The position numbers and the translations under genes are program-made. From a bacterium (lineage in GTDB: Bacteria; CAIJMQ01; JAADFP01): a DNA stretch of 59,390 bases. Positions within the stretch are counted from its first letter, which is position 1. Each line of letters begins with the position of its first letter. The notes below the pieces were generated by a model that worked only from the letters and a program-made list of their open reading frames with translations, had not been told where the DNA came from and ran no database searches. Positions 43,789 through 45,995 of the stretch are shown in pieces. The stretch is from assembly GCA_027021085.1 (NCBI GenBank), contig JALUVB010000053.1:1-59390 (forward strand). The letters run 5' to 3'.

Positions 43789-44298
43789 ATAATAGACTTT
43801 AGACCATAGACTATAGACTGTAGACTGGGAGATAGTGAACAGTAAATAGTAAACAGTAAGCAGTGAACAGTGAATCGGTTTCCTGGTATCCCGGTATCTT
43901 AGTATCCTGGTATCCTGCCCACCTGTCATGCCCGCCTGCTCCCGGAGGGCGGGCAGGCCTGCGAAAGCAGGCATCCAGGATTTTAGACTTTAGACCATAG
44001 ACCTTAGACTATAGACTGGGAGAAGCAGGATAAAGGCGGAGGAGCAGGTGGAACTGGCAACTCGCAACTAACAACTCACAACTCTTGGACTATAGACTGG
44101 GAGATAGTGAGCTGTAAATAGTAAGCAGTGAACGGTAGTGAGTAGCGAGTAGATAGTAGCGGGTAGTTAGGGGAAATATGAGAGAGGTGTGGGGTGATAG
44201 GCAGAACTGGCCACTCCGGACTCCCGAGATATATCGGGACTCACAACTCTGAAATCAGTAAGCAAGAATTGGAAGTTGAGAGGAGAGTTTTGCAAGGA
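43789..44298. repeat. Mosaic intergenic repeat region R4
   Basis: Reverse-orientation copies of the GTCTAWR, RTTYACT, GGATACC, GAGTTGY and CGCTAC modules. It contains IR arm 43909-43988 and the 124-bp unit at 43980-44103. Confidence 0.85.
43909..43988 (-). repeat. Left arm of a perfect 80-bp inverted repeat
   Basis: A base-by-base comparison shows it is the exact reverse complement of 45742-45821. The track ORFs 43651-43974(-) and 45756-45989(+) share the same first 22 aa (MPAFAGLPALREQAGMTGGQDT), which confirms this. Confidence 0.9.
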
Positions 44299-45528
44299 TT
44301 AAAAAAGACTGAGTTGATTTTTCTTTTCCTTGTCCACTTTAATTCTTATCTCTCCGTACACGCCATCGTAGCCAGGCTTTATTTCCACTTCTCCCCTTCT
44401 CACCCGCAGAATAGCTTCACCTATGGAAGGAGGAAACTTCTCCCGTATAATTTCCTCCTCTAAATCAAGCAGTATATTCAGTTCTCCTCCCCATTTCTCT
44501 ATTATCTGGATGTATTCCCTCTTTACCTGCTTGGATTCCCTTCCTACTCTTAGAGCCTGAGAAATAATTTCTTCCAGGGGGATGAGATGCTTGTAGGGAA
44601 TAGCTTGTGCAGGAGCAGCTCCCTCTTCCCTGTCGGAGAGCTCTTCTACCCTGTGCATTACCCCAATGGTAAGCAATCTGCCGCAGAGCGGACATATGTT
44701 ATTTTGCAGCATGGATTCCTGCGGAGCAAAAGAAACCCCGCATTTTCTGTGGCCGTCGTAATGATACTTACCCTCCTGGGGAAAGAATTCTATGGTAAAG
44801 AGCAAGCCCTTCTTACTCTTCAGTGCTTCCCTTATGGAAGGAAAAGTTAAGGGAACATCAAACACGTTTGCCTCCCGGCCCAGGCGGGAAGGTGAGTGTG
44901 CATCGGAGTTGGAAACCAGGCTAAACCTATCCAGCGCACTCCATCTCCAGTTCATGGAAGGGTCGCTGGACAATCCCGTTTCCAGGGCAATGATATCCCC
45001 GCTAAACTCACCGAAGCAATCTTCTATCCTGTTAAATCCGGACTCTGACCCAAAGAGGGAGAAATGCGGTGTCCATATATGAGCAGGTATAACCACAGCG
45101 CTCGGAGCAGACTTTTTGATAAGCTCCATCATTTTTTTCACTTCCAGGGAGAGTATAGGCCTGCCGTCGGAGGCCAACTTGCCAAAACGGGCAAATTCCC
45201 GGTTGAGCCTTTCCACCTCCTCGAAGCAGGGAGAAAGAATCACGTTGTGGATTTTTTTTGTTCCACGGGCAGTGGGGAAAATGTTGGAGACTTCAGCAGA
45301 AAGGATGAAGTAAGTGCCCCCGTAGGAAAAAACCCCTTCCTTCTCCTTCTTCAAACTCTGTTTTAAGTGGCTTAACCACTCCGGATGCGTGAAATCTCCT
45401 GTTCCTACCAGCTTGATGCCCTTCCAGCGTGCCCAGCGGGAAATACCATCCAGATTCATCTCCCGACTGGTAGCACGAGAAAAAAGCGAATGGATATGAA
45501 GATCCGCTATCCAGCGAGAACTTTCCAC
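44299..45528 (-). CDS. PHP-domain protein of the endonuclease Q (EndoQ / TIGR00375-like) type
   Basis: N-terminal ADLHIHSLFSRATS (PHP HxH), GTGDFTHPEW, and the later zinc knuckle CPLCGRLLTIGVMHRVEEL. Confidence 0.6.
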   Translation of the reverse strand: MESSRWIADLHIHSLFSRATSREMNLDGISRWARWKGIKLVGTGDFTHPEWLSHLKQSLKKEKEGVFSYGGTYFILSAEVSNIFPTARGTKKIHNVILSPCFEEVERLNREFARFGKLASDGRPILSLEVKKMMELIKKSAPSAVVIPAHIWTPHFSLFGSESGFNRIEDCFGEFSGDIIALETGLSSDPSMNWRWSALDRFSLVSNSDAHSPSRLGREANVFDVPLTFPSIREALKSKKGLLFTIEFFPQEGKYHYDGHRKCGVSFAPQESMLQNNICPLCGRLLTIGVMHRVEELSDREEGAAPAQAIPYKHLIPLEEIISQALRVGRESKQVKREYIQIIEKWGGELNILLDLEEEIIREKFPPSIGEAILRVRRGEVEIKPGYDGVYGEIRIKVDKEKKNQLSLF

Positions 45529-45545
45529 TTTTTTCCCTCCTCCAG

Positions 45546-45554
45546 ATTATACCA
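45546..45554 (-). promoter_or_regulatory. Extended -10 element (TGgTATAAT) upstream of the EndoQ-like gene
   Basis: The minus strand reads ...CATATGGTATAATCTGGAGGAGGGAAAAA followed by the start codon at 45528. No clear -35 element is present. Confidence 0.4.
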
Positions 45555-45589
45555 TATGCCATACCGGGGAGAATTAAATACCTGCAGAA

Positions 45590-45995
45590 GTTCAGATAAT
45601 AGACTTTAGACCTTAGACCTTGATGCCGTGTGCGATTTCTAATATTGACTGTCCAGAGATGTTCCGAGCCACGTGAGGGCAGGCGGGCAAGATATCAACT
45701 TACCGTTCACTGCTTTCCCAGTCTAACGTCTACAGTCTAAGGTCTAAAATCCTGGATGCCTGCTTTCGCAGGCCTGCCCGCCCTCCGGGAGCAGGCGGGC
45801 ATGACAGGTGGGCAGGATACCAAGATACCGGGAAATCGATTCACTGTTCACTGTTTACTATTTACTATTTACTGTTTACTATCTTCCCTCACTACTCACT
45901 ACCGTTCACTGTTCACTATTTACTATTTACTGCTTACTGCTCACTATCCTGCCCCCGGTCTTTGGAATTGCAGAAGTTTTGCCGGTTAAGTAGAA
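45590..45995. repeat. Mosaic intergenic repeat region R5
   Basis: GTCTAWR heptamers, a hairpin variant, and long RTTYACT/CTCACTA heptamer runs. It contains IR arm 45742-45821. Confidence 0.85.
45742..45821 (+). repeat. Right arm of the perfect 80-bp inverted repeat
   Basis: See 43909-43988. Confidence 0.9.

Follow-up and report, generated by a model that had tools for sequence, protein, structure and literature searches.

Modular hairpin repeats of bacteria include the REP/BIME elements and the pneumococcal BOX elements. Homologous recombination between inverted copies of dispersed repeats, such as insertion sequence (IS) copies, rRNA operons and REP clusters, gives rise to inversions. In cyanobacteria, the STRR and the 7-nt "long simple sequence repeats" (LSSR) are described as dispersed intergenic heptamer arrays (Mrazek et al., 2007, as cited in PMC4679880). 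Invertons, as presented in the work of Jiang et al. (2019) cited in PMC11892184, are invertible promoters or shufflons found by PhaseFinder, and those known so far work by turning a promoter round with respect to a gene (PMC11892184). Here, we analyse a long perfect inverted repeat that brackets an endonuclease Q-like gene, endoQ, close to a tyrosine recombinase gene on contig JALUVB010000053.1. This contig, a stretch of 59,390 nt hereafter called the window, belongs to a Caldisericota metagenome-assembled genome (MAG) of 1.93 Mb in 307 contigs (G000, in which the window is contig C53); all positions are those of the whole 59-kb window.

We consider it likely that the two arms of the inverted repeat are copies of a dispersed repeat around a resident endoQ, and that the locus is prone to rearrangement, being neither a mobile cassette nor a dedicated pair of recombination sites. 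Like STRR/LSSR, REP/BIME and BOX, the family to which the arms belong is non-coding, intergenic and present in many copies, modular with 7-nt tandem units and a conserved hairpin, lineage-specific, variable in module number between copies and between species, and associated with assembly breaks. It differs from them in its motifs (TAGACNN, AGTRAAC, CAACTCN, GTAGCGA, GGTATCCY and a ATGCCTGC-GNRA-GCAGGCAT hairpin) and in the optional nested hairpins of 26, 36 and 41 nt; moreover, its host belongs to the Caldisericota, and no transposase of the RAYT kind was found to go with it. As in inversions mediated by IS copies, rRNA operons or REP clusters, a block that has changed its orientation or place between close relatives is flanked by inverted copies, tens to hundreds of nucleotides in length, and the junctions lie at the repeats, but here the endoQ block is tiny (one gene, 1.75 kb), the repeats are short and non-coding, and the flip is placed in the sister lineage by parsimony. 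With invertons the locus shares an inverted-repeat pair around a short segment and a tyrosine recombinase gene nearby; in contrast to them, the segment holds a whole gene together with its promoter, the recombinase is a housekeeping XerC, and the arms come from a genome-wide family. The locus carries a caution, as a long perfect inverted repeat beside a recombinase gene mimics a switch or a cassette and is here probably explained by a proliferating repeat family.

The inverted repeat and the family of its arms

Compared base by base, positions 43908-43988 are the exact reverse complement of 45742-45822. The perfect match, put at 80 bp in an earlier note on this DNA, is 81 nt long, i.e., one base more. 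A repeat search returned a 109-nt inverted repeat with 95% complementarity (43902-44010 versus 45720-45828), and a gapped alignment of the arms extended the homology to about 200 nt, in which the GGTATCC octamer run is interrupted by two gaps of 8 nt and the TAGAC run by one of 7 nt; the indel in the GGTATCC run outside the perfect arms had been anticipated in the same note. The identical 22-residue N-termini that it had pointed out in two spurious open reading frames (ORFs), 43651-43974 on the minus strand and 45756-45989 on the plus strand, are accounted for by 67 nt of common arm, or 22 codons. The features of the repeat are as follows.

43908-43988, plus strand: left arm of the perfect inverted repeat (81 nt), with the end of a GGTATCC run, the hairpin core and the first TAGAC unit of a plus-oriented copy of the mosaic repeat
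45742-45822, minus strand: right arm of the perfect inverted repeat (81 nt), a minus-oriented copy of the same subfamily as the left arm
43957-43972, plus strand: core hairpin GCCTGC-GAAA-GCAGGC with a GNRA loop (genome-wide loop census and fold)
43933-43958, plus strand: nested hairpin of 26 nt, CGCCTGCTCCCGGAGGGCGGGCAGGC, inserted into the core hairpin (five genome sites)
43782-44277, no strand: left, repeat-filled gap, from the xerC stop to the endoQ stop (tandem repeat search, self-BLAST coverage over 43782-44250 and copy alignment)
45559-45961, no strand: right gap, between the divergent starts of endoQ and of a GT2 glycosyltransferase gene (sequence, tandem repeat search and self-BLAST coverage)

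The left gap contains TAGACNN, AGTRAAC and GGTATCCY arrays and the hairpin core, followed by part of a second unit, in which CAACTCN and GTAGCGA arrays occur. The right gap contains a TAGACCT array (45600-45621), a unique stretch of about 100 nt, the right-arm copy and reversed AGTRAAC arrays (45839-45945). It had been suggested that only endoQ and its promoter lie between the arms; instead, the segment also holds further repeat modules, about 290 nt on one side (43989-44277) and about 180 nt on the other (45559-45741). We considered whether the repeat could be an assembly artefact, and this was ruled out, because a megahit contig from a second assembly (ENA ERZ27262676, k141) matches 10,897 nt around the locus with a single mismatch, at 45613 and outside the arms; Logan contigs also reproduce the repeat sequence.

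The arms are not peculiar to this locus. A 281-nt query around the left arm gave 76 BLAST matches in the window genome, and a motif search for the hairpin core found 86 cores, spread over 63 contigs; in 30 cases a contig end is no more than 600 nt away. Most cores (62 of the 86) lie outside ORFs, as far as the rather crude ORF calls allow this to be judged, and self-BLAST coverage delimited 268 repeat regions that make up about 2.9% of the assembly. The tandem arrays, of the five types TAGACNN, AGTRAAC, CAACTCN, GTAGCGA and GGTATCCY, have periods of 7 and 8 nt. In five aligned copies the units follow one another in the order (TAGACNN)n, GGGAGA, (AGTRAAC)n, GTGAATCGGTTTCC, (GGTATCCY)n, hairpin core and (TAGACNN)n, the core being the ATGCCTGC-GNRA-GCAGGCAT hairpin.

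We compared the window genome with the sole other genome of the same genus (G001, JAADFP01), with one of the same family (G002) and with one of the same order (G003). G001 has 45 matches to the family, G002 and G003 have none, and a few short heptamer matches are found at the class level. The arms are members of a dispersed mosaic intergenic repeat of the STRR/LSSR/REP kind, present in many copies, modular and restricted to a lineage. A repeat gap of about 360 nt in the window (52925-53284) corresponds in G001 to a short gap (C74:3885-3921) that holds about three GTCTA-type heptamers; therefore, the module content expands and contracts between species. On contig C296 of the window genome, a gene for a small four-helix-bundle protein of the 23S rRNA intervening-sequence type (PF05635; 3342-3656) has inverted TAGACNN arrays immediately on either side, and heptamers of this type also form one module of the repeats that flank endoQ.

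The loops of the core are strongly conserved in kind: among 94 GNRA hairpins genome-wide, 46 have GGAA, 34 GAAA and 14 GCAA. The third pair of the stem varies between G-C, A-T and T-A, and these compensatory changes indicate that the core hairpin is under structural constraint. The bias towards GNRA loops hints at a role at the RNA level. The fold z-score was -5.3 for an insertion-free core and -3.2 for the left arm in the window, and the same hairpin is found elsewhere in the window, for example at 24123-24146, 33666-33689 and 53124-53145. An Rfam scan of the window returned tRNAs only, so that the repeat matches no known RNA family. We also asked how the cores are oriented with respect to flanking genes and found a mild bias, with the left gene co-oriented in 34 cases versus 20; a role as 3' untranslated region or terminator was considered and rejected, the bias being too weak to assign one. 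A little-known phylum harbours a young, structured mosaic repeat family built around a GNRA hairpin.

Cores that share a gap are always in direct orientation (8 of 8), and among the pairs that occupy separate gaps less than 5 kb apart, 4 of 6 face each other (+,-), i.e., three besides the pair around endoQ. Given this proportion, the inverted placement of the endoQ arms is unremarkable.

The nested insertion, given as 27 nt in the earlier note and thought there to be private to the two arms, is 26 nt long and occurs at five sites in the genome, twice on C53 (both arms) and once each on C77, C101 and C247; variants of 36 and 41 nt occupy the same stem position at seven more sites. The insertion-bearing subfamily was not found in G001, a genome that is 86% complete, and it is therefore young and probably specific to the lineage of the window species. 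Nor are the arms each other's closest relatives, as had been proposed. A genome-wide k-mer search for maximal exact matches gave 112 nt (43868-43979 in the window) between the left arm and the copy on C77, as compared with 81 nt between the left and the right arm, and all three copies have one identical 72-nt core. Two of these three identical cores lie 1.8 kb apart, which fits local copying or gene conversion. The suggestion that the arms arose through recent duplication or gene conversion thus holds insofar as they are nearly identical members of the family, related by recent copying or conversion, but the pair is not unique, since the C77 copy belongs with it.

endoQ and its ancestral context

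The gene between the arms, its predicted promoter and its right neighbour are as follows.

44299-45528, minus strand: endoQ-like gene, product of 409 aa, GTG start (match to EndoQ of Pyrococcus furiosus, PfuEndoQ)
45546-45554, minus strand: extended -10 of the predicted endoQ promoter, TGGTATAAT (TGgTATAAT; found in the sequence, inside the segment bounded by the inverted repeat)
46003-46677, plus strand: GT2 glycosyltransferase gene, beyond which lie the minus-strand genes DJ-1, pfkB and GFO

The product aligns with PfuEndoQ (PDB 5ZB8) over residues 8-399, matched to residues 5-385, with E = 1.6e-58, and PF27218 is on record for it. As in P. furiosus EndoQ (PDB 5ZB8 and 7K30) the homology is full-length, and an N-terminal DLHIHS motif aligns to the same motif of PfuEndoQ. 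In contrast to the archaeal enzyme, the protein in the window is bacterial, its identity to PfuEndoQ appears low, and its score against TIGR00375 (193 bits) is under the equivalog cut-off; the EndoQ activity, a cut on the 5' side of deaminated or abasic bases, is putative. Judged from its sequence, the product is a full-length Endonuclease Q homologue.

The extended -10 at 45546-45554 and the Shine-Dalgarno sequence, GGAGGAGGG, which had been described before, were both found in the sequence, and the -10 is kept as TGATATAAT in G001. The extended -10 was not listed by a promoter/terminator scan, and no -35 match was found.

Homologues of EndoQ are numerous, with more than 7,500 at E ≤ 1e-100 in many phyla. 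In relatives with 85%, 69% and 68% identity the gene is the last in the order pyrR-pyrB-(PMT2)-pyrC-endoQ, with spacers of 2-4 nt. In the genus of the window, endoQ is detached from the pyr operon and has a predicted extended -10 promoter of its own. G003 shows the order GFO-pfkB-DJ-1-pyrR-pyrB-pyrC-endoQ on one strand, and a search for inverted repeats of at least 20 nt with more than 75% complementarity found none bracketing endoQ there. In the window genome the pyr genes map to a different place, C1 with C215 joined to it. endoQ has kept its ancestral orientation and its position next to DJ-1-pfkB-GFO, although it now has a predicted promoter of its own and the GT2 gene is inserted between. 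The simplest history would be that the pyr genes left and endoQ stayed. endoQ is single-copy in the window genome, and its GC content is 48%, as compared with 44.7% for the window. On these comparisons endoQ is a resident chromosomal gene and not cargo, because its homologues are conserved, its relatives show a pyr-operon context without flanking repeats, it is present in a single copy, and no transposase is nearby. A conserved repair gene has thus become detached from the pyrimidine operon and now lies between two repeat copies.

Orientation of the endoQ block within and between species

A match of 81 nt without a mismatch, set in about 200 nt of imperfect homology, suffices for general homologous recombination. 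In our preferred explanation, the arms belong, in opposite orientations, to the youngest subfamily of a non-coding mosaic repeat that is specific to the genus, and its copies would have spread through the genome and colonised both of the successive intergenic gaps that flank the resident endoQ. Their near-identity would stem from recent local copying or gene conversion within the insertion subfamily. General (RecA-type) recombination between the inverted copies would then flip endoQ together with its promoter, and inversions and relocations of blocks at such repeats have taken place between the two known species of the genus.

Contig ends in the window assembly overlap by 127 nt; therefore, the k-mers reach across the arm of 81 nt, and there is read support for the orientation as assembled. 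The k141 megahit contig has the same orientation. We searched the MAG for junction sequences expected from an inverted or a deleted segment and found none, which is weak evidence, as a MAG retains a single path. When the exact protein sequences of endoQ, xerC and GT2 were looked up in other assemblies, only the same arrangement was returned (ENA ERZ27262676), and the Logan contigs (SRR8439019) break at the repeats and are uninformative on orientation. A common second orientation is unlikely, because the k-mers of the window assembly are longer than the arm, the k141 contig agrees, and no inverted junction was found in the MAG.

Following the suggestion of the earlier note that related genomes be checked for orientation, we found that in G001 the block formed by endoQ and its promoter is opposite relative to GT2. 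The order on contig C155 of G001 is the 3' end of a mazF-like gene, endoQ (+), about 20 nt, GT2 (+), DJ-1 (-) and pfkB (-). Relative to the window from 45962 onward, exactly 44278-45558, the gene and its promoter, is inverted, and the whole right gap (45559-45961) is represented by about 20 nt. No repeat was found at the junction of the endoQ 3' end with GT2 in G001, where endoQ has no bracketing repeats. Across the 59-kb window, the endoQ block is the sole discordance of orientation within any G001 contig. An exact-protein look-up of the G001 EndoQ found no record elsewhere. The flip is placed in the G001 lineage by parsimony, because G003 has the orientation of the window.

Two of the three other facing pairs also coincide with rearrangements. 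At the pair on C97, synteny with G001 is broken at the repeat, and the block between the pair on C107 has another place and the opposite orientation in G001, its junctions being occupied by repeats. Conversely, at two breakpoints (C266:~5820 and C118:~2369) there are repeats in G001 and none in the window genome. The repeats mark gene-order breakpoints in the genus, in a sample of sites that was not randomly chosen, and the repeat sites thus coincide with breakpoints between sister species.

That the inverted repeat permits inversion, as the earlier note had it, is partly upheld: the length of the arms makes them a plausible substrate, and the block is inverted in G001, but the present, insertion-bearing arms are younger than the split between the two species. 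They were probably not the cause of the inversion in G001, because the insertion-bearing subfamily was not found there. The G001 comparison therefore establishes that the locus is prone to rearrangement, and not that these particular arms were used.

Two further observations concern contig C155 of G001. Its first 240 nt, upstream of endoQ, appear by eye to be the 3' end of a MazF/PemK-type toxin gene, and the DNA of this stretch has no match in the window genome. The GT2 orthologue (1696-2371) matches in two frames, 1696-2127 and 2126-2371, possibly reflecting a frameshift, in which case the gene may be a pseudogene, or a sequencing error.

The adjacent recombinase and the rival explanations

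The two genes to the left of the inverted repeat are as follows.

40944-42908, plus strand: topA, overlapped by xerC
42892-43788, plus strand: xerC (TIGR02224), overlapping the end of topA

The stop codon of xerC, at 43788, is 120 nt from the left arm. Its product scored 356 bits against TIGR02224, for which the cut-off is 335, whereas tyrosine-invertase models, with cut-offs of about 221, gave it no more than 52-63 bits. The topA-xerC pair is kept in G003, on a contig without endoQ. We thus agree with the earlier description of a recombinase gene with the look of a housekeeping xerC, and its adjacency to the arm appears coincidental, because the product passes the XerC cut-off and the topA-xerC pair recurs in G003 without endoQ.

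If the XerC-type protein or another site-specific recombinase were to flip 43989-45741, the population would be heterogeneous at endoQ, as in an inverton. The perfect 81-nt inverted repeat, the recombinase gene that ends 120 nt away and the different orientation of the block in a genome of the same genus would all be in line with this. We nevertheless regard it as very unlikely, since the recombinase belongs with XerC and not with the invertases, the topA-xerC pairing recurs in G003 at a place apart from endoQ, the arms are unexceptional within a family of 86 cores, a single orientation is seen in two assemblies with k longer than the arm, and no repeat is present where the 3' end of endoQ meets GT2 in G001. 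Moreover, the promoter, the Shine-Dalgarno sequence and the coding sequence all lie between the arms, so that an inversion would leave their coupling unchanged and have no ON/OFF effect; a switch of the phase-variation type at endoQ is therefore unlikely. Exceedingly improbable, in our estimate, is that the inverted copies are the ends of a mobile cassette, composite or in the manner of a pair of miniature inverted-repeat transposable elements (MITEs), with endoQ as cargo. Near-identical inverted terminal copies do bracket one gene with its own promoter, and endoQ does lie away from the ancestral end of the pyr operon in this genus. The ancestral neighbours DJ-1, pfkB and GFO are, however, retained as in G003, the departure of the pyr genes is a simpler account, the genome has one copy of endoQ, there is no transposase ORF in 43.6-46.1 kb, and G001, G003 and three other relatives carry endoQ without a bracket. 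The earlier note had raised the cassette and proposed to look for an empty site, a single repeat between xerC and GT2; none was present in any assembly found, and the cassette does not agree with a conserved chromosomal gene whose neighbours in G003, DJ-1-pfkB-GFO, come without flanking repeats. The outer ends of the repeats fade into heptamer arrays, where target-site duplications are not definable.

It also seems conceivable, although quite unlikely, that the arms are a matched pair kept identical by selection, for instance because they act together as a long-range stem of DNA or RNA, or as arrays bound by a protein through which endoQ is insulated or regulated; small four-helix-bundle (PF05635) genes, flanked by inverted arrays of heptamers, would then offer a parallel. 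endoQ has inverted TAGACNN arrays immediately on both sides (43984-44017 and 45720-45748), the same heptamer type brackets the PF05635 gene on C296, and the hairpin core is structurally constrained. Against a matched pair, the promoter lies inside the position of the right arm, so that this arm would not be in the mRNA, the identity extends to the unlinked third copy on C77, and G001 and more distant orthologues do without the bracket. There is, finally, a slim chance that the repeats are not passive homology but recognition sites of a possibly protein-guided recombination system that actively flips and shuffles blocks of one or a few genes in this genus, endoQ among them, with both orientations coexisting in natural populations; the candidate system is possibly linked to the PF05635 gene. 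If the repeats were indeed active recombination sites, they could serve to model how the genomes of streamlined, uncultured bacteria are shuffled on a small scale.

Several points weigh against our preferred explanation, that of dispersed repeat copies around a resident endoQ. Since assemblers prune rare paths, a minority inverted form is possible in the population. One facing pair, on C159, is collinear in G001. The G001 contig on which the comparison of orientation rests is a short MAG contig of 4.4 kb, and the left context of endoQ there is mazF and not xerC, so that the species differ by more than a simple flip. The spacing of 1.8 kb between two of the identical 72-nt cores could reflect selection for a matched pair, and in view of the GNRA loops and the compensatory changes the repeat copies may have a function at the RNA level.

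Two minor observations concern the assembly of the window genome. Pairs of contigs (for example C72/C111, C131/C132, C173/C175 and C37/C292) have long exact stretches in common, of up to 1036 nt, and look like strain-variant or bubble duplicates. The exact 127-nt overlaps between contig ends would allow part of the assembly graph to be recovered.

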